Source: Methanocaldococcus jannaschii DSM 2661
GTDB taxonomy: Archaea; AGJL01; Methanococci; Methanococcales; Methanocaldococcaceae
Length of the DNA stretch: 32,000 nucleotides
NCBI RefSeq assembly: GCF_000091665.1
Contig: NC_001732.1
Location: 6,486 to 38,485 of the forward strand
Direction of reading: 5' to 3'
In this document: positions 1,673-31,540 of the stretch, one piece after another
Numbering within the stretch: the first letter of the stretch is position 1
Layout: each line of letters opens with the position of its first letter
The notes under the pieces: model-generated
Told to the model about the DNA's origin: nothing
Seen by the model: the letters and a program-made list of their open reading frames with translations, nothing else
Database searches by the model: none
Program-made: the position numbers and the translations under genes

Positions 1673-2677
1673 ATGATTGAAACCATCCACATCAAAAATT
1701 TTAGAGGTATTAGAGAGCTTAAATTGGAAAATTTGGGACAGATAAATATAATTGCTGGGAAGAATAATGCTTCAAAATCAAGTATCTTAGAAGCTTTGGC
1801 ATTGTTTTTAAGTGCAAAGGAGGGGTTTTCATTATTTATAAAAATTTTAAGGGAGATATTACTTTGGAGAGGATGGTATGGTGAAAAAAGTATTTATGAT
1901 TTGTTCTATAAAAATTCTAAAGAACTTGAAGTAAGTGTTAAGTTCTTAAATCAAGATTTTGCAAATTTAACCCTAAAAAATTCTAATCAAAGTTTTGCAA
2001 ATAAAAATATTGCAGTAGAACTTAAATCTGATAAAAATTCTTGGAGTGGACGTTTTGATTCACATTTAATACATCCAGATTATATATCATCAATATTAAC
2101 CTCTGCAGAGGCTACACAAAGTAATTTTGAATTTATAACATCCTTAACATTAATAAAGTTTGGATATATTGAGAGCATATACTCTCAAGCCTATGAGACT
2201 CAAGTTTTACAGGATGCTATAAGATTGCTTAGAGAAGCATACCCAGAAGTTAAAAGTCTAAGCCCTCTCCAAAAGTATAACAAGTGGATAATTCATGTTT
2301 AAACTGAATATGGAGTTTATCCATACTATGTAATGGGAGAAGGGTTTAAAAGTGCTTTAATAATTGCATTATTAACCTCTATACTAAAAAATGGTTATCT
2401 TTTGATAGATTCAGCTGAAGCCTTTCATCACCCCTCCTCACTTGAAATTACTTCACAAATGCTTACAAAATCTGTAAAGAATAATAACGTTCAAGTATTT
2501 TTAACCACTCACAGCCTTGAATTGATAGACTTCCTCCTTGAACATGCCAGTAAAGAAGGTATAGAGGGCAGATTAATCTACATGCGTAGAGATGGGGAAA
2601 ATTTAATTAGCAGTATGGAATCCTTTGAAAATGTTAGGGAAATGAGAGAAACTCTCGGAATTGATTTAAGGGGGTAA
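1673..2677 (+). pseudogene. ABC/OLD-type (RecF/SMC-like) ATPase interrupted by an in-frame TAA at 2300-2302
   Basis: ORFs 1643..2302 and 2333..2677 share one frame and are separated only by TAA. The likely start is ATG 1673 (AGGTG upstream). N-terminal half: IKNFRGIRELKLENLGQINIIAGKNNASKSSILEAL. C-terminal half: GEGFKSALIIALL, LLIDSAEAFHHP, VFLTTHSLE. Confidence 0.7.
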
Positions 2678-2679
2678 TC

Positions 2680-3405
2680 ATGAGGATTTTATTACTTGAG
2701 GGAATTACGGATGTTGCATTCTTCATTCCAATATTAAAGAAATTATATGGTTTTTCAGAAATTAGTTGTGATGGTATTATTAGAGCAGAAAAAATGGGAG
2801 ATATATCAAAACCAATATGTTTAGAGAATGAAGATGTTAAGTTGATAGTTTTCCACTCTGGAGGAAAATCAAAACAAAAACATGCTTTGACAGCAATGCT
2901 TACGGCTATTAAAATGGGTTATTTATCTAATATTAAAATCTTGGGCATTGCAAGGGATATAGACCAAGAGCATGATGTCAAAAACTGGACAAAGAGTATA
3001 ATAAAAAATGCTGGATTTGAAGTTAAAGAGGGTGACAAATTTTTGATTATAGAGGATTTAAACTTAAAAATAGCTGTTTTGGGTATTGCTAATTATGATG
3101 AGGATGATTTTAACATCCCATCATTTGAACTAAAAAGAGAACTCGAGGCAGTAATTACTGATATGGCTAAAGAAATCAGCATCATAGAAAAATTCAAAAA
3201 CTCTTTAGAATCATTAAGTAACGATGCTGAAAGAAGATTAAAGCCAAAAGACATAACGCACGTTTTAGCCATTGCTAAAAATTTTGACGGAGACTCCATG
3301 TCTGGCTTATATAGGAAATTTATTGAAGAGCAGATAAATAATAAAAATAAAGTGAACTTTTTATTAACACTAATATGTATTCTACCATGCCTCACCATCT
3401 TTTAA
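2680..3405 (+). CDS. Toprim-like protein (OLD/AriB/RloB-like nuclease partner of the ATPase)
   Basis: The start lies 2 nt after the ATPase stop, with GGGGGT upstream. MRILLLEGITDVAFF supplies the conserved Glu and ILGIARDIDQEHD about 85 residues later supplies the DxD, which is Toprim spacing. Confidence 0.55.
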   Translation: MRILLLEGITDVAFFIPILKKLYGFSEISCDGIIRAEKMGDISKPICLENEDVKLIVFHSGGKSKQKHALTAMLTAIKMGYLSNIKILGIARDIDQEHDVKNWTKSIIKNAGFEVKEGDKFLIIEDLNLKIAVLGIANYDEDDFNIPSFELKRELEAVITDMAKEISIIEKFKNSLESLSNDAERRLKPKDITHVLAIAKNFDGDSMSGLYRKFIEEQINNKNKVNFLLTLICILPCLTIF

Positions 3406-7840: not shown

Positions 7841-8945
7841 ATGAAATTTTTCAACAGGGAGAAAGAGATTAATGAGATACTTCGAATTTTAAATAGAGAG
7901 CCAGACGATATTTATTTTATATATGGACCCTTAAACAGTGGAAAAACTACTTTAATAAATCACATAATAAACAATGAATTAAAAAAATCCAATAAAAAAT
8001 ATGCTGTCTTTTATGTTAATTTCAGAGAGTATGATATTTACATCAATGGATAATTTTGTTGAGGCATTGTTTGAAATAGACGAAAATTCGAAAGAAAAGA
8101 AGATAAAATCATACATAGAGAGTTTTACAAAGGGAGTTAATGATATTATAAACTTATACTATGGGATAAAGATTCCAGAGCCAATATTGGATAAGTTTTT
8201 TGGAGAAAAAGAAAAGGGGGGATTGGTTTTTAAGTTTATTAGAGATTTATTTATGAGTTTGAATAAGAAGGGAGTTCAGCCAGTATTCATTTTAGATGAA
8301 TTGCAGATGATTAAAGATATTGTTATGAATGGAGGAAAGCCATTATTAAAAAGCTTATTCCAATTTTTGGTTTCTTTAACAAAGGAGAGGCACATAGCAC
8401 ATGTTTTTTGCCTAAGTTCAGATAGTTTGTTTATTGAGTATGTTTATAATGCTGGAGAGTTAGAAGGAAGGGCGAAATATCTATTGGTTGATGATTTTGA
8501 TAAAGAAACTTCCTTAAAATTTATGGACTTTTTAGCAGTAGAAGGAAATATTAACTTAACTAATGAAGATAAAGAGTTAATTTATTCTTATGTTGGGGGA
8601 AAGGCAAAGGACATAAAGTATGTTATTGAAGAAAGTAAGTTTAAAGACTTAAGAGAGGTTTTGGACTTTATGTTAAAAGATGAGGTTTCCAAATTGAGAA
8701 AATTATTGGTTAAGATAAAAACTAAAAAGATTGCAGAAGTTGAGTATGAAAATGTTGTTAAAGCATTAAAATTATTTAAAGACAATTATGAAATCAACGA
8801 ATACCTTATGGACGAGAATACAAAAGAATTCTTAATTAAAAGGAATATCTTATTCTTAAACCCCGTAGAGGAGATTTTAAAGCCACAAAGTTATTTAGTT
8901 TGGAACGCAATAAAAAGAGTATTACAAAATATAAACGATTTTTAA
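7841..8945 (+). pseudogene. 'Archaeal ATPase' family P-loop NTPase, frameshifted near 8030-8045
   Basis: ORF 7841..8053 ([14 protein letters not shown]...GPLNSGKTTL...FYVNFRE) and ORF 8001..8945 (...[17 protein letters not shown]...FILDELQ...) together align end to end with the intact neighbour 8962..10059. The frame changes after FYVNFR at the (ag)3 run. Confidence 0.75.
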
Positions 8946-8961
8946 AATTATTGGTGGGATT

Positions 8962-10059
8962 ATGAAATTCTTCAATAGGGAAAAAGAAATTAATGAAATT
9001 CTTTTAATCTTAGAAGAAGAACCAAATAATATTTATTTTATTTATGGTCCTTTAAATAGTGGAAAATCAACCCTAATAAGAGAAGTTATAACTAATAGAT
9101 TAGACAAGTCAAAATACATACCATTTTTTATTGATTTTAGAACGAGAAATATTTTAAACGTTGATAATTTTATTGAATGCTTGTTTGAAGTGGATGAAAA
9201 ATCAAAAATAGACGATTTTAGGGAATATGCCAAATCATTAGCTGATTTGTTGGTTAAAGGTAGTGAAGAGATTAGCAAATACTACTTGGGTATGCCTATT
9301 AAAGTGCCAAAACCATTCTTTGATAGAATTTTTAGTAAAAGAGATAAATCAGCAGATGTCTATCAATATATTGAATATTTATTTGCTAAATTAAATGAGA
9401 AAGGTAAAAAGCCAATTTTAATATTTGATGAATTACAGATGATTAGGGAGATAACTTTAAACGGGAATAGGTTACTATTGTGGAGTTTATTCCAGTTCTT
9501 AGTTGCCTTAACTAAAGTTCAACATCTATGCCATGTTTTCTGCTTAAGTTCTGATAGTTTGTTTATTGAATACATCTACGGAAAAGCTGAATTAAAGGGG
9601 GGAGTTGATTATATCTTAGTTGATGATTTTGATAAGAAAACTGCCTTAAAGTTTATGGATTTTTTAGCCAAACAAAAGAATATTAATCTAACTAATGAGG
9701 ATAAGGAGCTAATTTATTCTTATGTTGGTGGAAAGGCAAAGTATATTTATGATGTTATTGTCAAGTTAAAAGCTGTTAAAGATTTGAAATATATTTTAGA
9801 GACAAAACTTGAAGAGGAGCGGAATCACTTGGAAGAATTATTGGAGAAGGTTGAAGAAGATTATGAAGGCATAAATTATGATGAAGTCTTAGAAGCATTG
9901 AAATTGTTTAAAGATAATTATGAACTTCCAAAAAGTAAGATAAAAAGGAAAATTAGGATATTTTTAATTAAAGAGAATATTTTATTCTTAAATCCACAAA
10001 AAGGAACTTTAAAGCCACAAAGTTATTTGGTTTGGAATGCTATAAAGAGAATGTTGTAA
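8962..10059 (+). CDS. 'Archaeal ATPase' family P-loop NTPase (STAND-like, probable C-terminal winged helix)
   Basis: GGTGGG RBS. Walker [11 protein letters not shown], Walker B ILIFDELQ. Tandem paralogue of 7841-8945 and paralogue of 22690-23709. Confidence 0.85.
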
Positions 10060-10415: not shown

Positions 10416-10445
10416 TAAACTTTAATAATACTTATTATTGATAAA

Positions 10446-10754
10446 GTATTATACGTTCATACATATAAAAAATGTGAGAAAAATGAGAAAATAAAATATG
10501 TAATTTAAATTGTTAAGATTTAATAGTTTAAACGTGTGAAAAATGCTTGTTTTTAGAACATTGTATAATGTATTATGTAAATTATCTTTGGATATAATTA
10601 AAAATGTAAGAAAACCATTGAGATTTGGTGTAAAAGAGGGATAGATTGATTATATTGAAAAAAGTTTATGTTGTAAAGTGTATATTCATAATTGGTTTTT
10701 ACTAATGGACAAAATTATACAGTTTAAAATTTAAGTTTATAAATTAGTATTATT
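10446..10754 (+). repeat. Left copy of ~309-bp direct repeat
   Basis: The ends align nearly perfectly with 12770-13078 (gttcatacatataaaaaa..gagaaaaatgagaaaataaaa..atgtaatttaaatt ... aaaaccattgagattt..gtgtaaaag...agattgattatatt..aaaaagtttatgtt..taaagtgta...acaaaattatacagtttaaaatttaagtttataaattagtattatt). The centre is diverged. Confidence 0.85.
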
Positions 10755-12324: not shown

Positions 12325-12364
12325 GGGAGGTTGCCACACTTTTTAAAAAGTGTGGCAACCTCCC
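12325..12364. repeat. Perfect 40-nt palindrome GGGAGGTTGCCACACTTTTT|AAAAAGTGTGGCAACCTCCC
   Basis: Checked base by base: 20+20 nt with no mismatch. It lies 42 nt after the wHTH frame stop. Confidence 0.95.
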
Positions 12365-12651: not shown

Positions 12652-12687
12652 GAGGAACAGCCAATTTTTAAAAATTGGCTGTTCCTC
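12652..12687. repeat. Perfect 36-nt palindrome GAGGAACAGCCAATTTTT|AAAAATTGGCTGTTCCTC
   Basis: Checked base by base: 18+18 nt with no mismatch. It shares the TTTTTAAAAA centre with the 12325 palindrome. Confidence 0.95.
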
Positions 12688-12769
12688 CAACACCATAAAA
12701 ATGCAGACAACAAACCAAAAACCCATTAAGCAACATACTGAGATTGAATTATTACAACCTATAAAAATA

Positions 12770-13078
12770 GTGTTATATGTTCATACATATAAAAAACATG
12801 AGAAAAATGAGAAAATAAAAGATGTAATTTAAATTATTGTAATTTTTCTATTTTTGTGAGTAAATTGTGTTTAGTTTAAGAAGTATTCCCCACTTATTAT
12901 GTAAGTGGATTATTTACTCCACTAAAAATGTAATAAAACCATTGAGATTTAGTGTAAAAGATGAATAGATTGATTATATTAAAAAAAGTTTATGTTATAA
13001 AGTGTACCTTGATAATCAGTTTTCACCAATAGACAAAATTATACAGTTTAAAATTTAAGTTTATAAATTAGTATTATT
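12770..13078 (+). repeat. Right copy of ~309-bp direct repeat
   Basis: See 10446-10754. Confidence 0.85.
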
Positions 13079-13375: not shown

Positions 13376-13429
13376 CGATTATGGAAATAGTGAAACAGTG
13401 TTAGAATAAAACAAAAAGGGTAAATAAAC

Positions 13430-13633
13430 TTATTTCTTCAAAGCTAGTTTTACGTCTTCGACTTTTACTGTTTTTCTCTTTGCCATGTTTTGCCAAGTCA
13501 ACAGCTTCTTTAGCTATTTCCAAAGCTAAATCTTCTATAGCCTCAGCAAAGTATTCCGCTGCAGCCCTACTAACTCTCTCAGCCCCATCCTTTTTTAATA
13601 TCCTTACAAACGGTGCAACTGAAGCTCAGCCAT
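13430..13633 (-). pseudogene. Archaeal histone gene with two compensating frameshifts (-1 near codon 5, +1 near codon 50)
   Basis: It has the same 204-nt length as the intact histone gene (29732-29935) and keeps RBS, ATG and TAA. My alignment shows actgaagctc versus actggaagctc (1 nt lost) and 67 versus 66 nt between ctttgc and gtattc (1 nt gained). The central 45 codons ([43 protein letters not shown]) are out of frame with both ends. Confidence 0.8.
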
Positions 13634-13699
13634 AACACCACCCAAAAAAACTTATACTCAAAAATTATCAATTAAAACCTACAAAAATATTACTATTTT

Positions 13700-13990
13700 T
13701 GTACATATACACCTCCCAATATTATAATATTCTACAATACAATAATTACATAATACCACAATACAATAATCCAAAATCATGCTAAAGAAAAATCCAATAA
13801 AACCCAAAAGAATAACATGATTACATAATAAAACAATACAACAATTAATTAATAACATAATAAAAATAAAAACTTGTTAAAATTATAATATTTTAAACTA
13901 ACTAAAAAGAAAATAAAAATATAAAAATTAAAAGAGGGGGAGAGCCCGAGAGGGGAAGGGGAGAAAATGAGAAAAGTGGAAATACTATAA
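13700..13990. repeat. Arm 1 of a long inverted repeat (partner 31640-32000) with GC-rich polypurine core
   Basis: The reverse complement of 31640-31760 aligns with 13850-13985 (ataaaaataaaaacttgt..aaatt ... aaaattaaaagagggggagagcccgagaggggaaggggagaaaatgagaaaag). Core: 13934-13962. Confidence 0.7.
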
Positions 13991-21583: not shown

Positions 21584-22363
21584 ATGGTTGTAATTTCAAT
21601 TGCAAATCAAAAAGGGGGTGTTGGAAAAACAACAATAGCATTAAACCTATCATTTACACTTGCAGAAAAGGGGTATGATACTTTAGTAATCGATTTAGAC
21701 CCACAATTCAACTTATCCTTTGGAATTTTGGGAATGAAATTATTAGATTATGCTGATAAAAATATTGGAATACTATTATCAAAAAATTCTGTTAAGAAGA
21801 AAGAAATTGAAGAGTCTATTATAAAAATTAATGATAAGTTAGATTTAATCCCCTCCCACTTGCAGCTTTCTGCTGTAGAAAAAATGTTAGTTAATGCTTA
21901 TGCAAGGGAAATGAAGTTGAAAAATATCATTAACCAAATCAAAGAAAATTATGACTACATAATAATTGATAATGCCCCATCATTAGGACTATTTTTAATA
22001 AATTCATTAGTGGCATCTGATTATATTATCATCCCATGTGAGCCAAGTTATTTTAGTATTGCAGGAGTTCAACTAATGTTAGATACTGTTGAGGAAATAA
22101 AAGAATCAAACTTGAATCCAAAACTTAAAGTTTTAGGGTTTATTTTCAACAAGTACTCTAAACAATCAAAAATTCCACAAAAGAGGTTAGAACAGTTAAA
22201 ACAACTCTATCCTAACATTCCAGTAATTGGAGTAATTCCAAGAACTATTACTGTTGAAAAGGCAGAACGTGAGGGAAAACCTGTGTTTAAATTTGATGCT
22301 AATAATCCTGCAAGTGTTGCATTCTCAGAACTTGCTGAGTGGGTGATAGAAAATGTCAAATGA
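21584..22363 (+). CDS. parA: ParA/Soj/MinD-family partition ATPase
   Basis: GGTGAG RBS. Deviant Walker A NQKGGVGKTT (21605-21634), DLDPQ, and IIIDNAP Walker B. Confidence 0.92.
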   Translation: MVVISIANQKGGVGKTTIALNLSFTLAEKGYDTLVIDLDPQFNLSFGILGMKLLDYADKNIGILLSKNSVKKKEIEESIIKINDKLDLIPSHLQLSAVEKMLVNAYAREMKLKNIINQIKENYDYIIIDNAPSLGLFLINSLVASDYIIIPCEPSYFSIAGVQLMLDTVEEIKESNLNPKLKVLGFIFNKYSKQSKIPQKRLEQLKQLYPNIPVIGVIPRTITVEKAEREGKPVFKFDANNPASVAFSELAEWVIENVK

Positions 22364-22689: not shown

Positions 22690-23709
22690 TTATTGCATTG
22701 CATTTATAATCTCCTTTATAGCATGCCATTCGATAATAGATGTCGGTTTGATTATTCCATTTATCACATCATAAAACAATATTTCATTCTCAATTAGGAA
22801 TTTTAAATATTTCATTTCCTCTTTTTTAACTTCCTTATCATAGGAGATTTTTATCTTGTCCTTGAATTTAGATAAAACATTATAAAGCCCCTCCTCATCT
22901 AAATCGGTTGTATCTATAAGGTATTTTAGCCCATCTTTTTCAACATTAATCCACTGTTTTATAGTTTGTTCAACAGATAAACCTAACTTCTTATTATTTA
23001 TCAGTTGAGAAATCTCATAAGGCAATGATAAATAGTCTAAAGCATAATTAATCTCTTCTTCGCTAAAACCTTCTTCTTTTAAAATATTCCTTATAGTTCC
23101 TTTTCTTAACCAGTCAATTAAATAATACTCAGAGGCATTTTTTAATGTTGAATTCCTATAGATTTCATCAATAAATAATGTATCAGAAGTTAAGCATATA
23201 ACATGGCATAAATGTTCCATTTTAGTTAGAGAGACGAATAAGTTAAACAATTCGTTTAATAATGACTTTCCTCCATTAAAATAAATATTCTTCAACTTTT
23301 GTAACTCATCAATTATTAAAACTGGCTTTTTTCCTTCTTCAACAACTGCGTTAATACTCTCATTTATCTTAGCAAAGACATCATTTAGGCATAAGTTATT
23401 AAAGTCAAAATTCTCTTCAATTCCAAACTTACAAACTCCCAAGTTAAGTTCTAACTTATTTAATAGATATTTTTTATCCGACTTTTCAAAAAATACTCTT
23501 AAAAACTCATCCCTTGTTGGTGTTGCATATTTTCTTAAATTATAATAGAAAAACACTATATTACTGTTTTCTAACTCCTTAATAACTCTCCTCATTACCG
23601 TAGATTTACCAGATGATTTAGGACCATAAACAAAAAGGATAGAATTAGGTTCTAACTGACAGTAGGTTTTTAGATAGTTGAGTTCTTTCTCTCTATCATA
23701 GAATTTCAT
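22690..23709 (-). CDS. 'Archaeal ATPase' family P-loop NTPase, third paralogue
   Basis: GGGTGA lies 4 nt before ATG 23709 (MKFYDREKELNYL). Walker A GPKSSGKSTV, Walker B VLIIDELQ. Confidence 0.85.
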   Translation of the reverse strand: MKFYDREKELNYLKTYCQLEPNSILFVYGPKSSGKSTVMRRVIKELENSNIVFFYYNLRKYATPTRDEFLRVFFEKSDKKYLLNKLELNLGVCKFGIEENFDFNNLCLNDVFAKINESINAVVEEGKKPVLIIDELQKLKNIYFNGGKSLLNELFNLFVSLTKMEHLCHVICLTSDTLFIDEIYRNSTLKNASEYYLIDWLRKGTIRNILKEEGFSEEEINYALDYLSLPYEISQLINNKKLGLSVEQTIKQWINVEKDGLKYLIDTTDLDEEGLYNVLSKFKDKIKISYDKEVKKEEMKYLKFLIENEILFYDVINGIIKPTSIIEWHAIKEIINAMQ

Positions 23710-24036
23710 AATTTCACCCAAATAAACTCTTTATTTTAATTAAAAATATTATTTTAGAGTATTTAAAAGTTGAACATGCCATATTACATTAGCTGTGAAT
23801 CTAAAGTTGAAAATTAACCTTTACTGTCTTTATGACATCATAACCACACTACCTATTGTATTATTTTATTACATCATAATTTAATTGCATTATAACATAA
23901 TAACATTATTCCATAATTCTTTATACAATAATTATTTAACAATGGCATTAAACAATTACTTAAAAATTTAAATACACAAAACAACATTGCAATATTGCAA
24001 TAATAAAATAATTCATTAACTAAAAATAATAAAGTG

Positions 24037-24062
24037 GTGAATTGACTTTGAAGTCAATTCAC
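24037..24062. repeat. Palindrome family copy P4 (TG centre, full 12+12)
   Basis: gtgaattgactt-tg-aagtcaattcac, 20 nt downstream of the stop of the 162-aa gene. Confidence 0.95.
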
Positions 24063-24082
24063 AGTTATAGATAAATAATGAC

Positions 24083-24571
24083 CTAAAGCTTCTCCAAATC
24101 CAATGGAACATATTTTACAATATAAGCCTTATTTACAATAACAACATCTCCCTTTCCAACATCAACCAAGACAGTATAAGGGTCCTTACAACAGCATTTG
24201 CCCTCCAACACTTCACCATTAGCCAAATGCAACCTAACCTTATGATTATGGCAAAAGAATAAAACATAATCTTTTCTCTCTTGAGTACTAACACACGTTT
24301 CCCTAACCCTCTTTGGCTGCTTTTTACCTTTGCCCTGTTTTTTCTGGCCAGTTTGTTTTTTACCATTATTTTTAGATTTTTGACTTTCCAACTTTTTAAG
24401 CTCTTTTTCAATCTCTTCTAAATGCTTACTTTTAACGTGTTTCCTAACAACCTTAGCATCAGCATTAGTATAATCACAAAAAGGACATTTATAAAAACCA
24501 ATATCATTCTTTTGAAGCTCTAACTTCTCAACATACTCATCAACATTCACAATCTCACCTAGAATATCCAA
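24083..24571 (-). CDS. C2H2 zinc finger, basic linker and Hfq/Sm-like domain protein
   Basis: YKCPFCDYTNADAKVVRKHVKSKH is C-X2-C-X12-H-X4-H. The linker is K/G/Q-rich (KSKNNGKKQTGQKKQGKGKKQPKR). VRLHLANGEVLEGKCCCKDPYTVLVDVGKGDVVIVNKAYIVKYVP parallels the Hfq Sm1/Sm2 pattern (V.L.L.NG..L.G.....D.F.VLL......V.YKHAIS..VP). The start is uncertain: TTG 24571 or GTG 24550. Confidence 0.6.
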   Translation of the reverse strand: MDILGEIVNVDEYVEKLELQKNDIGFYKCPFCDYTNADAKVVRKHVKSKHLEEIEKELKKLESQKSKNNGKKQTGQKKQGKGKKQPKRVRETCVSTQERKDYVLFFCHNHKVRLHLANGEVLEGKCCCKDPYTVLVDVGKGDVVIVNKAYIVKYVPLDLEKL

Positions 24572-25045
24572 AATTTGAAAAATAGCAAAATGTCAAATGC
24601 AATGTATTCCCCCATACTATCAATATGTAAAGTAATCCATATTTAAAACTATCCTAAGCCTAGTAACAAACACAAAGAATGCAAATAAAAAGAAAAGATG
24701 AAAAATGTGACATTTAGCACATTAAATGCCATTGTTATAAAATAAACAAAGACAAAACTTTCCTCCCTAGCAATTTTGAGTTAAGAGAGACAACCAACCT
24801 GCAGCAATTTTTGAGAATTTTAGTAAAGGGAATTATCCCTTACATAATACACGCAAAAAGTGCAATCTTGTTGCGGAAATTCATTCTTACTTTTAAATTT
24901 ATTATCTATTTGTTTGCATAAGATTTAAATGTATTGTTATATCTATTAATTTTTGCTAATGTTTATTAATAAAATATTTAAATATATTGATTAATATTAT
25001 AAAACTCTTAAAATTCATCATCACTTTTTTGTATTGTTGTTTTAA

Positions 25046-28000
25046 TTAGGTAATCCGCAGCAATCCAGGTTTTGGCTCGTATATTACCCCCAACTTTTTC
25101 AACTTTTCTAATGCTTTATAGAATACTTCTTCAACAAACTTCAATTTTTCAACAATTAGTTCATATAATTCCATTTCTAATATTTCCCCTCCATTTTCTT
25201 CAATTTTCTTTTCAATAACTTTTTCACACTTTTCAACACTGTTAGAGTTAATATTTTGTTTTATAATCTCATATAGCGTTTTAAACTCTTTGTTAAGTTC
25301 TTTTATTTCAACTACTGCATTTTCCCCCAGTTTTTTTACTCCTCTAATTACACAATTAAATATTGCTCTTATCAATCTTCTAACTTCATCCAAGGTTAGA
25401 GTGAATCCACATTCTTCTTTTATAACCTCTATTAATTCTCTAATTTTGAATTTTTGTCTTTCAATGGCAAAATCTCTAACTTTTATTAACACTTTTGCAA
25501 CTAATGACCTTAACCCTAACTTTCTCCTATCTAATCTCTCATCATCTTCTCCTACTACAATATTCCATACTGCTCTTATAATCCTTTGAATCTTACCCCA
25601 TTTTGATGGAGGGCATAAGAATGTTTTTAGAATTAGCTCTTCTATAATTCTTGCCAATGTTGAGAGTTTATCCTTATGTTCCTCTAACAATTTCAAATCA
25701 ATATGGTAAATTTTCTTTGTTTTTCTATCTTCATTTTCATTAATTTCTTTAACAATTTTCTTATACTCGTTAATTTCTTCTAAGCATTTTTTAATAGTAT
25801 TTTCATCTAAGTTCGATTTTTTATCATCATCTTTTCCTTTATTCAACATTAGGTTATACACTTCTATAACTTCTGGAATATTATAAACATCTTTTAACAC
25901 GTTTATACTCCTGTTAATCCTTTTTGAGTGTTTTTTTATTAATTGTGGAGTGTATTCATCCCTACAATCTTTAAATTTCTTATAATTATTATATTCCAAG
26001 GCATTTTTGATTTCATTCACTCCATATTCTTTAAATGCAATAATTATATGTTTTGCACTAACTTTTTCAAGATATTCGAGATAATTATATTTTAAGAACT
26101 TATCCAGCTTACTTTCTTTTAACTCTTTTATTGTTTTAATTGCAAACTCATAGCCAGTAGTTTTTTCTAAATACTCTTTTAGTAATTTATAATCTCTTGT
26201 AATATGGGCCTCTAATAGACTATTATAAATGTGTGCTATTTCATCTTCATCTAAAACCCAATCCTTCTTTTCCTCATCATAATATATTGCATTTTGAATT
26301 TGAGAAATCAACACTTTCTTATAATTTTTATCCAATTCTTTTAAAACTTCAATATCCGTTTCTAAATACTCTTTTAATAGTTTATAATTTTCCTTAAACA
26401 TTTCAATCATTGCATTATAATCAATAATCATTGGCTCTTCTTCTCTTTCTTTAAAAGGTGCTGTGACAATTAACTCTCCCCCACCATTCCTACATCTGGC
26501 AATAAACTGTCTAATGGTGGTAGCACTCTTACAATACAATGCCCATACCAAATCAACATGATTTTTAATATTAACTCCCTCAGAAATGACTCTTGTGGCT
26601 AAAATTAACCCCTCTTCTGGTACTTTTTCTTCATTAATAATCATTTTACTTGCCTTGTCAATTCCAACAGTCTCTCTTGTTATAACGTAAATTGGCTTGT
26701 TAAAACCATACAATTCTAAAGTATATTTTATATTCTCAATCATTTTCTTATTATCAACTAAAACTACAGCATTTTTTATCCATCCCTGTCTAAACATTAG
26801 TAGGATGTATTCACAAAACTCTCCAATAATATTTTTTGCAATATGGATAGAACATCTTTCAAATAATTTTTTCTCATCTTTAAATTCCACTTCTATAACT
26901 GGATAGTTATTCAAATTAATTAACTCTGGAGTTGCAGTTAGTAAGACACAACCTCCAGCCCTGTCTATACACTTTTTTACCCCTGTTATTGCCCTTTTTC
27001 TAAACTCTTTTTGGATTACTAAATCATGTGCTTCATCTATTGCCAATAGAATATCCTCTTCATTAGCAACTTGAATTTTCTCCCCTTTATAAGTGTCATA
27101 ACATAAATCATTAAGCATATTTTCAACTTGGTCGTAGGTCCCAATGGTCAAATAATGAATAGTATTCTTATCCAATTTTTTCCCATCTTCATAATACATT
27201 GGAACTACTACTCCATCAGCGTGTAATCCTGCCCCTACTTGTAAAACTTGTATTTTATATGGGAATGCCACTGCTATAGCATGTTTTTTAAATACCTCTT
27301 TAATTTCTCTTGTATTTCTTGTTAGAGTATAAGTTTTCCCCCTTCCAGTGTCTGCTTTAAGAAATACTGGAACTCCTTGTTCAATAGATAATTGGTATGC
27401 TTTTATTATAGCCTCTTTTGGTAAGTATCCTTCTGCTTCTATCTTTATTGTTTCTCTATCGAGTAGTTCATTCATTATCTCTCTAACAGTCCTATAAGTG
27501 GATGGCTTTGGATTAATATTGTGTAATTTTAAAAATTCTATTATTTTATCCCTAAATTCTTTAATCATCCATAATCCTGCTAATGCAATAAATCTCATAT
27601 TTGGATCGTGGAAATCTACCATTACTGCATTATATCCCTCATTAATGTAAATAGAACAGTCAGGATTTTTCCCATCATCAAAGAATAAACTCCATAAGTC
27701 TAATCTGGTTCCATTTTTACCATATTTATAATCAATTCCCAAGTAGGAGAGGAGTTTTTCAATCCATCTTTTACCCAATTTTTTAGTTAATTTATCTTGT
27801 ATAGTATATAACCATTTGTAAATTCTTTTATTTATATCTTGCAATATAGTTTTATTAAGATTTGGTTTTTTTATTAATCTATTAATTGTTGTGGTAATGT
27901 TGTTTAATCCTCGCTTATTGTATAATTCTTCTCTTTTTTCATTGAATAATACTTCAAATTCTTTATAATTTTCAATAATTCCAAACTTCTCATACAATAT

Positions 28001-28864
28001 TATTGGAGTTAACAATTTTTCAATATCTTCTTCATCTGTCAACTGGGCTATTGTAACACATGGTCTTGGACTACCATATTTTTCCTTATAATTGTAAGTT
28101 CCTACCAGCCTATCAACTCTTGCCAAATCATACATTGCAATATCTGCCCCTAAATCTTCAGCAATCATTCTTAGTAGTATTAATTCTTCTTCTAAAATAG
28201 GTCTTTCAGGATATAATATGAATCTTAATCCTCCCCCAGTAAATGCCACTTTATGTGGAAGTATATCCTTCTCTACGAATTTTGATAAATATTTAATCAA
28301 TTTTTCCATAATTTCTTCTTCTGTAGGCATTTTGTTTGTCTTCCACTCTTCAACGTCAAAATCAAATGCAATATAACTCCAAGCAGTGGCAGCTCCCGCA
28401 TCCCCTCTTTTTTCCTTTCTTGGGGCAATTCCGACATAAACCCCATCTAATCTTCTTTTCTTTTGTTTTTTAATATACTCATACTGTTTTTTTATTAATT
28501 TTATGATTTCTTCAGTTTTTTCTAAAATATTATCAACGTGTAAATCTGAAATATCTATGAAAAATTGTTTTTTACCCTTAAATTTTCCTAAAAATCTAAT
28601 TTCTAAATACTTAAACTGTTTTACTAATTTTTTCAAAATTTTTTCTAAATGAGTTTCTCCAAGATATACTGAAAATTCTTCTTTATGTTTGACAATCAAA
28701 AATAGCAACTGTGCAATGTGTAATTTTAAATCAGATTCTAAAATATCATCTGAGATATTGTAAATTCCACTAACATTTATTTGATACTTATCAAAAATAG
28801 CTTTTACAGTTTGATCATCCCAATACCGCAAACTTTTTATACTATTAGATAGTATATTATTCAT
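25046..28864 (-). CDS. Archaeo-eukaryotic primase (AEP) domain, SF2 DEAH helicase and C-terminal winged helix; candidate plasmid replicase
   Basis: GGTGA lies 8 nt before the ATG. The AEP motifs are SYIAFDFDVEEW, AFTGGGLRF and DLARVDRLVGTYNYK (about nt 28055-28447). The helicase motifs are FLKADTGRGKTY, LLAIDEAHDL, LLTATP, VISEGVNI and QFIARCRNGG (about nt 26465-27397). The C-terminus is ALEKLKKLGVIYEPKPGLLRIT. Confidence 0.7.
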   Translation of the reverse strand: MNNILSNSIKSLRYWDDQTVKAIFDKYQINVSGIYNISDDILESDLKLHIAQLLFLIVKHKEEFSVYLGETHLEKILKKLVKQFKYLEIRFLGKFKGKKQFFIDISDLHVDNILEKTEEIIKLIKKQYEYIKKQKKRRLDGVYVGIAPRKEKRGDAGAATAWSYIAFDFDVEEWKTNKMPTEEEIMEKLIKYLSKFVEKDILPHKVAFTGGGLRFILYPERPILEEELILLRMIAEDLGADIAMYDLARVDRLVGTYNYKEKYGSPRPCVTIAQLTDEEDIEKLLTPIILYEKFGIIENYKEFEVLFNEKREELYNKRGLNNITTTINRLIKKPNLNKTILQDINKRIYKWLYTIQDKLTKKLGKRWIEKLLSYLGIDYKYGKNGTRLDLWSLFFDDGKNPDCSIYINEGYNAVMVDFHDPNMRFIALAGLWMIKEFRDKIIEFLKLHNINPKPSTYRTVREIMNELLDRETIKIEAEGYLPKEAIIKAYQLSIEQGVPVFLKADTGRGKTYTLTRNTREIKEVFKKHAIAVAFPYKIQVLQVGAGLHADGVVVPMYYEDGKKLDKNTIHYLTIGTYDQVENMLNDLCYDTYKGEKIQVANEEDILLAIDEAHDLVIQKEFRKRAITGVKKCIDRAGGCVLLTATPELINLNNYPVIEVEFKDEKKLFERCSIHIAKNIIGEFCEYILLMFRQGWIKNAVVLVDNKKMIENIKYTLELYGFNKPIYVITRETVGIDKASKMIINEEKVPEEGLILATRVISEGVNIKNHVDLVWALYCKSATTIRQFIARCRNGGGELIVTAPFKEREEEPMIIDYNAMIEMFKENYKLLKEYLETDIEVLKELDKNYKKVLISQIQNAIYYDEEKKDWVLDEDEIAHIYNSLLEAHITRDYKLLKEYLEKTTGYEFAIKTIKELKESKLDKFLKYNYLEYLEKVSAKHIIIAFKEYGVNEIKNALEYNNYKKFKDCRDEYTPQLIKKHSKRINRSINVLKDVYNIPEVIEVYNLMLNKGKDDDKKSNLDENTIKKCLEEINEYKKIVKEINENEDRKTKKIYHIDLKLLEEHKDKLSTLARIIEELILKTFLCPPSKWGKIQRIIRAVWNIVVGEDDERLDRRKLGLRSLVAKVLIKVRDFAIERQKFKIRELIEVIKEECGFTLTLDEVRRLIRAIFNCVIRGVKKLGENAVVEIKELNKEFKTLYEIIKQNINSNSVEKCEKVIEKKIEENGGEILEMELYELIVEKLKFVEEVFYKALEKLKKLGVIYEPKPGLLRIT

Positions 28865-29077
28865 TGGTCACTCACCTTACTGTGGGTAGTATATATTCAT
28901 TGGTCACATCTCTTGGTCATACACCTCGACCATGCCTACACTAAATACTCCCTAATGTTGCAATACCTTAACATATAATGCAATACAATACTGAGCTCTT
29001 TTGATACAATCTATGTAATTTAAAGAGTATAAGAAACATTTTCAGGGGGCGACCATTTCTATATTATTTTTTGAAGT

Positions 29078-29246
29078 ATATAAACTTTTAGTTATTTTTT
29101 GAATTTGTATATTTGGATTTATATCATATAACTTTTTCTGAAAATTTTTCCTGACATATCTATTAGGTAGTTAGTATATATATATTTTTCGGATTTTTGC
29201 ATGTTTTTACACTTTATCTTCTAATTTTATAACTAAAAGTTTATAT
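29078..29246. repeat. 18-bp perfect inverted repeat pair (29078-29095 and 29229-29246) in the AT-rich gap next to the replicase gene
   Basis: ATATAAACTTTTAGTTAT and ATAACTAAAAGTTTATAT are exact reverse complements, separated by 133 nt. Confidence 0.9.
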
Positions 29247-29624
29247 TTTTCAAATAAAAAGGTTTATATACTATGAAATCATAGTATTGCTTGATTACAA
29301 AATTATTTTTTTGATAATAATGCCTATTTTTTCTTAATTCGTTGTGTGGTTGATAAAATTGTTAGCAGCATTTATGTTTTATATTTTAAAAAGAAAAGCA
29401 TTAAATCTACATTTATTGTTATTATCTTATTTTTTGTGTCTTTTTTATCTTCTGTAAACTCTTATAAATCTCTTATATAGTATTATAATTATTCTATAAA
29501 AATATGTGGATTAAGTTGGGTAAGAAAAATGTGCGAAATAGGGGCTAAAATAATATTAAAACATTAATGTCTTTTGTCTAGTGTTACATTTTTAGTTACG
29601 TCTTTAACCACTTTTATTAGTACA

Positions 29625-29731: not shown

Positions 29732-29935
29732 TTATTTCTTTAAAGCTAATTTTATATCTTCAACTTTTACTGTTTTTCTCTTTGCGTGCTTAGCTAAATC
29801 AACTGCTTCCTTAGCAATTTCTAATGCAATTTCTTCAAATGCCTCTGCTAAGTATTCTGCTGCAGCCCTACTAACTCTTTCAGCTCCAACTTTTTTCAAG
29901 ATTCTCTCAAATGGTGCAACTGGAAGCTCAGTCAC
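29732..29935 (-). CDS. Archaeal histone (HMf family)
   Basis: [67 protein letters not shown] is a 67-aa single histone fold. GTG start after GAGGTAG. Confidence 0.92.
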
Positions 29936-30199
29936 AACACTACCTCTTTGTATATGTAGAGTGTAGAAGCTCTAATAACCTACAAAGTGGGAGTTCAAAT
30001 TTGCTAAACTTTAAGCTCCCTTAATGGAAACTCGAAACTAAAATAAGTAAAACCATAATACAATAATACAATCATTCAATAATATCATAAAATCATAATT
30101 TAGTAATGCAATAATCCAATAACTCCACAATAACATAATAAAATAACTTTGAGTTTCCACTAAAAGAAATTCAAAGGTGGGGTTAATAAATTTCTTATA

Positions 30200-30223
30200 T
30201 GAATTGACTTCAAAGTCAATTCA
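30200..30223. repeat. Palindrome family copy P6 (CA centre)
   Basis: tgaattgactt-ca-aagtcaattca followed by caaaaaaga, as in P1. Confidence 0.95.
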
Positions 30224-30550
30224 CAAAAAAGAAATGTCACCCATCACATCATAAACACATCCACCGACATACTAATCAAAATTTAATTATTGAATTATTA
30301 AATTAAACAATAACATAATAACATAATTATTACATTATGTTATTATTTAAAATAACCATAAAACTCCAGATAGTATTATTGGGTCCTCGTAAAAATATAG
30401 TCGTTCAATTGAACCATAATATTGCTAATATTGGTCATTCTACTGAACCAATATATAAATGTTTTTTATCATTAGTTAGGGTTCAAATTGGCAACTTCAC
30501 CTTATTTATATAGTATTTCATGAAAATGTAGTAATTTTCAAACTACTATT

Positions 30551-30662: not shown

Positions 30663-31124
30663 TTATTCTTTAATTATCTCAATAAAATCTACTTTTTCAA
30701 AGTCAGAATCAAAGGTAGCTAATTTATTTATCCTATAATATTTACAAGTGGCTATTATGATTGCATCGTTTGTTAAAAGGTTGTATTTTTTACCTATTTC
30801 AGGAGCTAATTTTAAAACTTCCCAATTTGTATCTAATATTTTTAAGTAGTTCATTTTAATCATTTTATCAATTTTTTCTCTAACTTCTTCATATACCCAA
30901 GAATATCTATTTAAATTCTTTTTTAAATCATAAACTCCTCTAATTCCATCTTCTAATGCTATATGAAATGTCACTTTAAACATTGTTTCAGAAAAGACTA
31001 TTGGATTTATGCATAACATAAAACCATCATTTATTAGTTTAGATAATAATTTATGAGCTTTTTCATCTCCAATAAATAATCCAACCATGACTGAAGAATC
31101 AATAAAAACATTAGAAGGACTCAT
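30663..31124 (-). CDS. vapC: PIN-domain ribonuclease toxin VapC
   Basis: The acidic PIN residues sit in VFIDSSV, FSETM, LLTNDAIIIA and ATFDSDF. The gene overlaps the upstream small gene by 14 nt. Confidence 0.85.
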   Translation of the reverse strand: MSPSNVFIDSSVMVGLFIGDEKAHKLLSKLINDGFMLCINPIVFSETMFKVTFHIALEDGIRGVYDLKKNLNRYSWVYEEVREKIDKMIKMNYLKILDTNWEVLKLAPEIGKKYNLLTNDAIIIATCKYYRINKLATFDSDFEKVDFIEIIKE

Positions 31125-31308
31125 AATATGCCTCTTTTAATTTTTTATAATCGATATCTTTACACTTTTTTATTATCATAGATTTTAAAAACTCTTCTAC
31201 ATCATCATTAACAATTTTAATTTTTAATCTCTTTTTACCCTTTATTTTTAATGGTTTTAATGGTTTTAAAACTCCATCTTCGTAAATAACTTCAATAATT
31301 TCTGACAT
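31111..31308 (-). CDS. vapB: VapB-type antitoxin (AF2212/DUF104-like)
   Basis: MSEIIEVIYEDGVLKPLKPLKIKGKKRLKIKI matches the IEAIYENGVLKPLEPL pattern. GGTGAT lies 4 nt before ATG 31308; the track's GTG 31317 lies inside the RBS. Confidence 0.75.
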   Translation of the reverse strand: MSEIIEVIYEDGVLKPLKPLKIKGKKRLKIKIVNDDVEEFLKSMIIKKCKDIDYKKLKEAYYESF

Positions 31309-31540
31309 ATAAATCACCAGAGGCCTTTATTTTTCTATTTTTCTAAGGTAATATTTAAACCTTCTTTCGAAGTGTATATTATTGTTTTTTGAGAATTGAG
31401 AAAAGTTTAATTTGACAGTTTCTTAAATGATAGACAGAGAGTATATGATAATTATATATTTAACTTTTTATTATTTTATACTCTTCGTTTATACTCCCTT
31501 ATCTTGGTTTCTGAACGTGCAGCATTTTTAGGCTGCCACC

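Follow-up and report, generated by a model that had tools for sequence, protein, structure and literature searches.

MJECL28 of the Methanocaldococcus jannaschii large extrachromosomal element: an archaeal primase fused to an SF2 helicase, and a probable plasmid replication protein

A plasmid replicase that combines primase and helicase in one protein is an established principle, and it is in this setting that MJECL28, the biggest gene of the 58,407-bp large extrachromosomal element (ECE1) of Methanocaldococcus jannaschii, is described here. In PrimQH- and pRN1-type replication (Rep) proteins the standard plan runs from an archaeo-eukaryotic primase (AEP) domain through a linker domain and an NTPase to a winged helix (WH; PMC5862659). 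PrimQH is one family within the PrimPol-PV1 supergroup, the others being PolpTN2, PrimHYQ, All3500, RepB', RepE/RepS and InversePrim (Kazlauskas et al. 2018, PMC5862659). ORF904 (RepA) of the Sulfolobus plasmid pRN1 likewise unites an AEP prim-pol, placed N-terminally, with a helicase and a winged helix as a single Rep protein (PMC2926602), but it belongs to the Prim-Pol proper clade (PF09250), its helicase is of superfamily 3 (SF3), and no sequence-level relationship to MJECL28 was detected. Only one AEP fused to a superfamily 2 (SF2) helicase has been tabulated previously, the bacterial All3500 “Prim+SF2” type (Calothrix WP_019489483.1; PMC5862659); unlike MJECL28 it is bacterial, and its AEP is of another family, with a zero score against the MJECL28 profile described below.

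The window analyzed is a 32,000-nucleotide stretch of ECE1 (NC_001732.1, positions 6,486 to 38,485). M. jannaschii was, as far as is known, the first archaeon to be sequenced, and the biggest gene of ECE1 is still annotated “uncharacterized / DEAD-box helicase.” The open reading frame (ORF) of 1272 amino acids proposed in the first-pass annotation, a reading made from the DNA letters before the present analysis, was recovered over the same span, on the minus strand and with an ATG start; the window has a G+C content of about 28%, stops are frequent in it, and a 3.8-kb ORF is therefore not there by chance. Every peptide quoted in that annotation is present and in the same order (Table 1), and the motifs are invariant among MJECL28 homologues, even at 29–41% identity. 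By exact-sequence match the protein is Q60287 (UniRef100_Q60287; AAC37099.1; WP_010890075.1), named at source either “Uncharacterized protein MJECL28” or “DEAD/DEAH box helicase family protein,” with the primase part unlabelled. The literature searched makes no mention of MJECL28 or its accessions: papers naming “MJECL” treat other genes, PMC2926602 names MJECL27 alone, and the tables of Kazlauskas et al. 2018 (PMC5862659) do not include it.

The primase domain and its nearest described relatives

In single-sequence searches of Pfam, NCBIfam, PHROG and PDB the AEP domain goes undetected, apart from a weak PHROG match (“DNA polymerase/primase,” E=5e-4): Pfam gives only ResIII above threshold, and NCBIfam and PDB give helicase fragments only. 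A HMMER profile of the N-terminal 480 residues, searched exhaustively against 1.84 billion cluster representatives, found three full-length relatives at E<1e-30, corresponding to three 50%-identity clusters. The exhaustive profile search also returned 36 further matches (E 1.5e-11 to 1e-3), mostly to the region 130–280. When Pfam was run on 20 of these, RepB_primase was found at the aligned position in most, in some cases below the cut-off, followed by PriCT_1, PriCT_2, D5_N, NrS-1 HBD, AAA_25 or HTH/Phage_rep_O; such domain compositions typify primase-helicase or primase-HTH replication proteins.

An alignment of 40 sequences over query residues 85–300 (A3) is invariant at D170, G210, G212, D241 and K260, and nearly so at E88, G145, R149, D168 (at least 90%), P203, R249, R252, G255 and N258. 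This pattern is the signature of AEPs, with DxD as motif I, (S/T)GxGx- as motif II, the motif III Asp, and in addition a “motif IV.” The first-pass annotation had missed the motif III Asp by five residues: D246, in its “D...R..R” string, is replaced here by the invariant D241. The string itself, R249/R252..G255-T256-x-N258-x-K260, is the Arg-containing “motif IV” of the PrimPol-PV1 primases, in which Arg lies upstream of PGxxNxK and is essential in PolpTN2 (PMC5862659).

Structural comparison points the same way. The best sequence matches of profile A3 in the PDB are AEPs, namely S-2L PrimPol (6zp9, E=0.0011) and then Pfu PriS, Pho PriS and RepB' (E 0.05–0.3). AlphaFold2 (AF2) run on A3 gave a confident model (mean pLDDT 94.6, pTM 0.89); run on residues 1–480 with six sequences, AlphaFold gave one of low confidence (pLDDT 49). 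All Foldseek matches of the AEP model to the PDB at E<=0.01 are AEPs, in the order 6zp9 (E=2.4e-6), RepB' (3h20/3h25), the CRISPR-associated Prim-Pol (CAPP; 7nqd/7p9j) and LigD polymerase domains, with ASFV PrimPol, Prim-PolC, human PriS and Sulfolobus PriS lower down. BFVD yielded 60 matches at E<=0.001, with TM-scores up to 0.67; the named ones among the matches listed are phage primases, primase-helicases and replication ATPases (DUF927, “Replication protein B,” RepB primase, VirE, AAA). Residue conservation, profile matches and predicted fold thus combine to confirm an AEP domain in MJECL28, and the AEP fold first proposed for residues ~140–270 is borne out.

Motif II is where the domain departs from its relatives. 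FTGGGLRF aligns residue for residue with FTGGGLQL of PolpTN2 and with SGxGxH of PrimQH, which puts R214 at the His/Gln position; the residue is aligned there in all family members and invariant in the family down to 29% identity, so that the Arg-for-His replacement already noticed at first reading holds throughout. The His of sGxGxH is thus missing, and G210 and G212 are kept. His, Gln and Tyr all occur at this site in PrimPol-PV1 enzymes, including active ones (PMC5862659). Arg would join the residues tolerated there, and we infer that the MJECL28 domain could be active with it.

For placement among the known families, a hidden Markov model (HMM) built from the MJECL28 family only was scored against 16 labelled domain sequences (supplement of PMC5862659). 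The PrimQH proteins of M. voltae (WP_013179890.1, 44.7 bits) and Geoglobus (WP_048092202.1, 41.5 bits) came first, followed by one PolpTN2 (31.8 bits), with all other matches at 16 bits or less; among the 16, the representatives of All3500, RepB', RepE/RepS and InversePrim gave no score. On these 16 representatives the MJECL28 AEP appears nearest to PrimQH among the labelled families. It has in common with PrimQH the hEhR strand, yfGvaPR, DxD, (S/T)GxGx-, gaD and aRvxRlPGTxNxK motifs, the general layout (primase, then linker domain and NTPase, with a WH plausible at the C-terminus), and an association with mobile elements. It differs in its NTPase, which in PrimQH is DUF927, VirE, RepA, DnaB or MCM (the Geoglobus member is Prim+DUF927) and in MJECL28 is SF2; in having Arg214 instead of the Gln/His of motif II from which PrimQH takes its name; and in a linker with no detectable PriCT or Zn-binding domain.

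Two other comparisons are instructive. PolpTN2, from the Thermococcus plasmid pTN2, is also a hyperthermophile plasmid Rep, and its motif II (FTGGGLQ) is near-identical to that of MJECL28 (FTGGGLR), but it has Gln at the critical position, is fused to PriCT-1, PriL-like and WH domains, and has its helicase in a separate gene. The nearest solved structures, RepB' of RSF1010 (3h20/3h25) and cyanophage S-2L PrimPol (6zp9), match with Foldseek E values of 2.4e-6 to 5e-4; they differ in that identity is only 11–15%, at a TM-score of about 0.5, the accessory domains are others, and neither is fused to a helicase.

The helicase core and the remaining regions

Across the family the helicase motifs are collinear: I (A-x-T-G-x-G-K-T), Ia (FPY..Q), a TYDQ element, II (DEAH/DESH/DEYH), III (TAT/SGT), a IV-like VLVD, V (LATRVIxEGxNI) and VI (QFxARxRN), all kept in members down to 28% identity. 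Pfam ResIII scores 25.4 bits in MJECL28 against a cut-off of 22.5, and ResIII and/or DEAD are above cut-off in two relatives (P0007 and P0008); Helicase_C stays below it, at 12.8 bits in MJECL28 and 18.6–20.7 bits in the same two relatives. The family profile spans both RecA lobes (positions 19–303) on the DEAD-box protein MJ0669 (1hv8, E=5.8e-8), with eIF4A at ~1e-5 and more local PDB matches to RapA, Brr2/ASCC3, Cas3 and reverse gyrase. These alignments confirm a two-lobe SF2 core of an unclassified DExH type. The colinearity of SF2 motifs claimed by the first-pass annotation is therefore upheld, and of its “DEAH-type” label the SF2 part stands while the DEAH/RHA class does not: MJECL28 has no HA2 or OB_NTP_bind match, its PDB matches are generic SF2, and motif II is DEAH in the ECE1-type proteins only, DESH or DEYH in other members. 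Pfam Herpes_ori_bp and the UL9-like PHROG groups also have no match in MJECL28.

The pairing of an AEP with an SF2 helicase is unusual, as had been suspected at the outset and as agrees with the PMC5862659 survey, where it occurs in the one bacterial All3500 group alone; MJECL28 extends the catalogue of primase-helicase fusions with an archaeal AEP joined to a canonical SF2 core. In a scan of IMG/VR, two contigs were seen to encode a protein of 1348 aa with a homologous SF2 core at its centre (hhalign 98.2%, E=4e-14, 270 columns). At its N-terminus is a sub-threshold BT4734-like_N AEP match (E=0.013); the AEP nature of this region is unconfirmed (hhalign against A3, 2.1%; no PDB match). There are hints here of repeated pairing between the MJECL28-type SF2 clade and primases, possibly through a second, independent fusion.

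Between primase and helicase lies a middle domain with the invariant core W..L..YL.I.YK..G......S....DG.NPD..IY.N.GYN....DFH. The same module is found behind Pfam Prim-Pol (PF09250) in an unrelated 291-aa protein (P0028), and is therefore taken to be primase-associated, at the place of PriCT or Zn-binding domains. Residues 289–480 gave no PriCT or Zn-ribbon match in Pfam and no relevant match in a PDB profile search. A degenerate DnaG-type CHC2 zinc finger was considered for the pattern S-L-F-F-D-D-G-K-N-P-D-C and rejected (hhalign 0.08%, no PDB match). A proteasome beta5 match of the six-sequence N-terminal profile in the PDB was likewise dismissed as spurious; residues 393–443 (~27536–27688) match the propeptide/N-terminus of yeast proteasome beta5 (PRE2; E=0.0067, DD.RNPDC.I.I..G), probably by chance. 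Residues 1–84 have no family match, and the helical region at 811–1075 has neither a family nor a PDB match.

In the C-terminal region, the top two PDB profile matches, both non-significant, are the WH domains of P. abyssi RPA32 (9f27, E=0.18) and of an archaeal MCM (2ma3, E=0.19), which have the pattern L..(L/K)G.(I/L)(F/Y)EP..G in common with it; three of six members match Pfam MCM_WH_arc below its threshold (best E=0.024), and a second WH-like unit is possible at residues ~1139–1190. A C-terminal winged helix of MCM/RPA32 type is thus plausible, as the first reading had it, and at E~0.2 not statistically supported. WH domains of this type are often protein-interaction modules.

Occurrence on mobile elements and proposed role

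Very few members make up the MJECL28 family, which as far as seen is confined to Methanococcales. Among 5.8 billion proteins a word-indexed search gave six relatives (90–37% identity), all from hydrothermal-vent or Logan assemblies, and a scan of one genome per species added two copies, both in Methanothermococcus sp. Ax23; homologues total six to eight. PLSDB gave only one distant bacterial helicase, and neither a phage-genome search for MJECL28 relatives nor a word-indexed search with the helicase alignment gave any match. All relatives of known context are on mobile elements of Methanococcales. The ECE1-like ones are on vent-metagenome contigs of 35–59 kb with the same synteny and with ParA; in the 59-kb and 35-kb contigs the order is histone, MJECL28, MJECL27, a variable insert, ATPase_2, a small ORF and ParA, and the block 24031–29364 of the window has 88% DNA identity with the vent contigs. 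Against the orthologue on one such contig (L001), the overall ratio of nonsynonymous to synonymous substitution rates (dN/dS) is 0.16, and all domains are under purifying selection, with residues 1–84 excepted (Table 1).

The two Ax23 copies also have a bearing on function. One is on a plasmid (L005, NZ_CP157523.1) whose true circle is 7,634 bp; the deposited record has a 98-bp terminal duplication that splits the homologue across the record ends and makes it look frameshifted. It is an intact protein of ~1210 aa with all AEP and SF2 motifs, and its gene fills about half of the DNA; the three other ORFs tested match no Pfam family, and there is no MCM. The other, on the chromosome (L004), lies between a tyrosine integrase and tRNA-Leu, beyond which are an IS transposase and housekeeping genes; upstream in this island is a gene with weak, mostly sub-threshold matches to HerA/FtsK-like ATPases. 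An integrated element ends at this locus. Rep genes adjoining the integrase have been noted in pT26-2-type elements of Methanococcales (PMC6972569).

We think it probable that MJECL28 is the replication initiator-primase-helicase (Rep) of the ECE1 plasmid family. The proposal builds directly on the domain identities, the conserved catalytic residues, the purifying selection and the confinement to mobile elements; the “probable replicase” of the first-pass annotation fits the last of these, with the 7.6-kb plasmid and the integrase/tRNA-Leu island. Primase-helicase Rep proteins are well known and no new principle is involved, but recognition of the AEP gives both the ECE1-type plasmids and the 7.6-kb Methanothermococcus plasmid a concrete candidate replicase.

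In outline, one polypeptide would recognize or open the plasmid origin, unwind the DNA and lay the first primer. The C-terminal WH region, possibly with the middle domain, would take MJECL28 to a cis site or to partners; the DExH SF2 motor, driven by ATP, would then open the origin by melting or translocating on the DNA; and the N-terminal AEP would make a primer on the exposed strand, with D168, D170 and D241 as the metal triad and R214 and R249/R252 holding the incoming nucleotide. The primer would pass to host polymerases. On the 58-kb element, bulk unwinding at the fork may fall to the plasmid-encoded MCM (MJECL13-like); on the 7.6-kb plasmid, host MCM or the SF2 motor itself would have to serve. 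This division of labour with MCM, like the location of the origin, is conjectural.

Several points weigh against a Rep role. Motif II lacks the His/Gln of characterized relatives; the winged helix, and hence origin binding, is without statistical support; an inverted repeat upstream of the gene, described below, may be merely two TATA-like promoter elements; and the family is tiny, so that comparison has little depth. Replicative helicases, moreover, are not usually of the SF2 kind. ECE1's own MCM, finally, has an intact ATPase core (E=5.8e-56), contrary to the first-pass annotation, which had called it degenerate, and could make MJECL28 accessory.

A more specific version of the Rep proposal is possible, if rather unlikely. 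It would be a distinct archaeal mode of initiation: a monomeric DExH SF2 motor with an Arg-type AEP opens the origin and primes alone, in the manner of UL9, the MCM/RPA32-like WH hands the fork to the WH-less MCM of ECE1, and the “DDGxNPD” domain, in place of PriCT/Zn-binding domains, is a new module for recognizing the template or the origin. The plasmid MCM has no MCM_N match and no C-terminal winged helix. As a separate observation, MJECL28 ends in what may be an MCM-WH-like motif whereas this MCM has no WH.

Among the alternatives to a Rep, the least weak, though itself unlikely, is that MJECL28 is an accessory primase-helicase, acting in lagging-strand priming, fork restart or PrimPol-like damage tolerance, with MCM and an unidentified origin-binding protein as initiator. 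The strong MCM on ECE1 would suit this, as would several ATPase_2/MJ1010-like proteins of unassigned role on the same element and a WH resembling the protein-interaction WH of MCM and RPA32 rather than a sequence-specific type. Monomeric SF2 helicases, moreover, are commonly found in repair and restart. What is harder to accommodate is the 7.6-kb plasmid, which has a full-length homologue with no MCM or other recognizable replication protein among the ORFs tested, and the integrated copy, whose place beside an integrase is one that Rep genes take in other Methanococcales elements (PMC6972569).

The nature of motif II bears on a further alternative: if the AEP were catalytically dead through the His-to-Arg change, and served only for DNA binding or as a scaffold, MJECL28 would be an origin-binding SF2 helicase comparable to herpesvirus UL9. 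UL9 is itself an SF2 helicase and an origin-binding initiator. The UL9-like pVOG1685/9714 helicases are likewise SF2, but MJECL28 has no Herpes_ori_bp or PHROG match. R214 does stand in place of a nucleotide-contacting His, and direct Pfam detection of the AEP fails. We nevertheless consider a dead AEP very unlikely: the 40 sequences show no variation at D170, D241 and K260 and near-invariance at D168, R249, R252, G255 and N258, R214 is itself invariant in the family and Arg can contact phosphates, the domain's dN/dS is 0.19, and the His position already varies (Gln, Tyr) in active relatives that include PolpTN2 and RepB' (PMC5862659).

Most improbable is a role in conflict or establishment (defence, anti-defence, or a transfer-associated primase-helicase that deals with DNA as it enters, comparable to conjugative elements' polyvalent proteins, in which primase and SF2 domains reportedly co-occur): there are defence-type genes nearby (OLD/AAA_15, a PIN toxin-antitoxin and, in L001, an MZB+DEAD helicase pair), but MJECL28 matches 0 families in PADLOC, the window lacks the MZB/helicase insertion, which is so unlinked to MJECL28, the conserved partners ParA and MJECL27 are plasmid backbone, and the 7.6-kb plasmid showed no genes for conjugation. 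On the zero PADLOC match and the unconserved defence-like neighbours, the defence-system reading as such is rejected.

Neighbouring genes and non-coding DNA

In ECE1-like contigs MJECL27 invariably comes next downstream after the MJECL28 homologue; the two probably form one module, in which MJECL27 may be a cofactor of replication. MJECL27-like ZF/Hfq proteins are also found on pTN2-family plasmids, where the Rep is PolpTN2 (PMC2926602, PMC3543421). The window also has a PIN toxin and OLD-like fragments (Table 1), as well as histone genes. One of the ATPase_2/MJ1010-like genes lies between ParA and MJECL27, a place kept in L001, and has weak PADLOC matches (PDC-S01, mad8). The front half of the split OLD-type ATPase has AbiLi/Gabija/PARIS-like PADLOC matches; L001 has an intact OLD-like protein of 931 aa, and the window copy looks like a decayed defence gene.

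Table 1. Coordinates of MJECL28, its domains and motifs, and other features of the window (positions are those of the window unless another sequence is named; dN/dS against the L001 orthologue)
Feature	Position	Strand	Remarks
MJECL28, complete ORF, 1272 aa	25046..28864	minus	ATG start; M. jannaschii ECE1
N-terminal region, residues 1-84	28613..28864	minus	poorly constrained, dN/dS 0.67; low AF2 confidence
AEP primase(-polymerase) domain, residues 85-300	27965..28612	minus	PrimPol-PV1 supergroup, PrimQH-like; dN/dS 0.19
AEP motif I, D168-x-D170, metal-binding DxD	28355..28363	minus	A3 conservation; quoted peptide SYIAFDFDVEEW, residues 163-174
AEP motif II, G210-G-G-L-R214, Arg at His/Gln position	28223..28237	minus	alignment with relatives; quoted peptide FTGGGLRF, residues 208-215
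AEP motif III, D241, third catalytic acidic residue, in “GAD”	28142..28144	minus	invariant, 40 sequences
AEP “motif IV,” R249-x-x-R252-x-x-G-T-x-N-x-K260	28085..28120	minus	A3 conservation; quoted peptide ARVDRLVGTYNYK, residues 248-260
Middle domain, residues 301-475	27440..27964	minus	invariant DDGxNPD..IY..GYN..DFH core; dN/dS 0.12
SF2 helicase core, residues 476-810	26435..27439	minus	ResIII, family alignment, 1hv8 profile match; dN/dS 0.07
Helicase motif I, ADTGRGKT, residues 504-511	27332-27355	minus	quoted peptide
Helicase motif Ia, FPYKIQVLQ		minus	
Helicase motif II, DEAH, residues 610-613	27026-27037	minus	quoted peptide
Helicase motif III, TATPE, residues 643-647	26924-26938	minus	quoted peptide
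Helicase motif V, LATRVISEGVNI, residues 755-766	26567-26602	minus	quoted peptide
Helicase motif VI, QFIARCRNGG, residues 786-795	26480-26509	minus	quoted peptide
Alpha-helical region, residues 811-1075	25640..26434	minus	conserved; dN/dS 0.11
C-terminal region, residues 1076-1272	25049..25639	minus	candidate WH in last ~50 residues, 25049-25192; dN/dS 0.16; quoted peptide LEKLKKLGVIYEPKPGLLRIT, residues 1252-1272
Conserved non-coding region upstream of MJECL28	28865..29364	.	inverted GTTTATATAC pair; may be promoters and/or cis-acting replication site
MJECL27	24083..24571	minus	C2H2 zinc-finger and weak Hfq-like C-terminus; directly downstream of MJECL28
Plasmid MCM (MJECL13-like), 602 aa	4193-6001		P-loop (E=5.8e-56) and lid strong; OB domain weak
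ParA	21584-22363		
Three paralogous ATPase_2/MJ1010-like genes	8001-8945, 8962-10059, 22690-23721		
PIN-domain gene and overlapping 68-aa upstream ORF	30663-31124 and 31111-31317		likely VapBC-type toxin-antitoxin, beside replication region
AAA_15/OLD-type ATPase split into two ORFs	1643-2302 and 2333-2677		plus DUF3226 at 2680-3405
Viral-contig protein, 1348 aa	8189-12235 of L006 (IMGVR_UViG_3300044530_003077)		
Ax23 chromosome (L004), tyrosine integrase	8975-9937 of L004		
Ax23 chromosome (L004), MJECL28 homologue	9950-13510 of L004		
Ax23 chromosome (L004), tRNA-Leu	13842-13929 of L004		

The conserved DNA upstream of MJECL28 holds the inverted GTTTATATAC arms (29064–29095 and 29229–29260), which are 32 nt long and 88% complementary, enclose an AT-rich spacer and lie ~200–400 bp upstream of the start codon. 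The pair is kept in L001 (8682–8703 and 8879–8900), with ~135–175 bp between the arms in ECE1 as in L001. The arms are motifs of TTTATATA type; this sequence is at the same time the TATA-box consensus of archaea, so the arms may be promoters rather than an origin, and the repeat is not accepted as a demonstrated origin. The MJECL28 gene with ~500 bp of upstream DNA is a candidate minimal replicon, of the kind needed for shuttle vectors of hyperthermophilic methanogens. A conserved GGTCGCCCC block follows the proximal GTTTATATAC arm. Closer to the gene, a sequence of 14 nt, TATTCATTGGTCAC (coding strand, GTGACCAATGAATA), lies over the MJECL28 start codon (28858–28871) and is repeated exactly at 28894–28907; the upstream copy, 36 nt away, starts a mini-ORF of seven codons.

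Rfam has no match in the whole window, and the other repeats are recorded as observations. A direct repeat of ~320 bp (10436–10754 and 12760–13078, 2,324 bp apart, 75–91% identity) may represent a non-coding element that is mobile or acts in cis; similar sequence is present in L001 at 8007–8378, non-coding and just upstream of the MJECL28 homologue. AT-rich clusters of short repeats of the AATA[AC][AC]ATAAT type at 13705–13925 and 30048–30355, beside histone genes (13393–13702 and 29732–29935), could be iteron-like or promoter arrays. Two perfect palindromes (12325–12364 and 12652–12687) lie in a gene-poor stretch, one of 20+20 nt without a spacer and an overlapping one with 23-nt arms.

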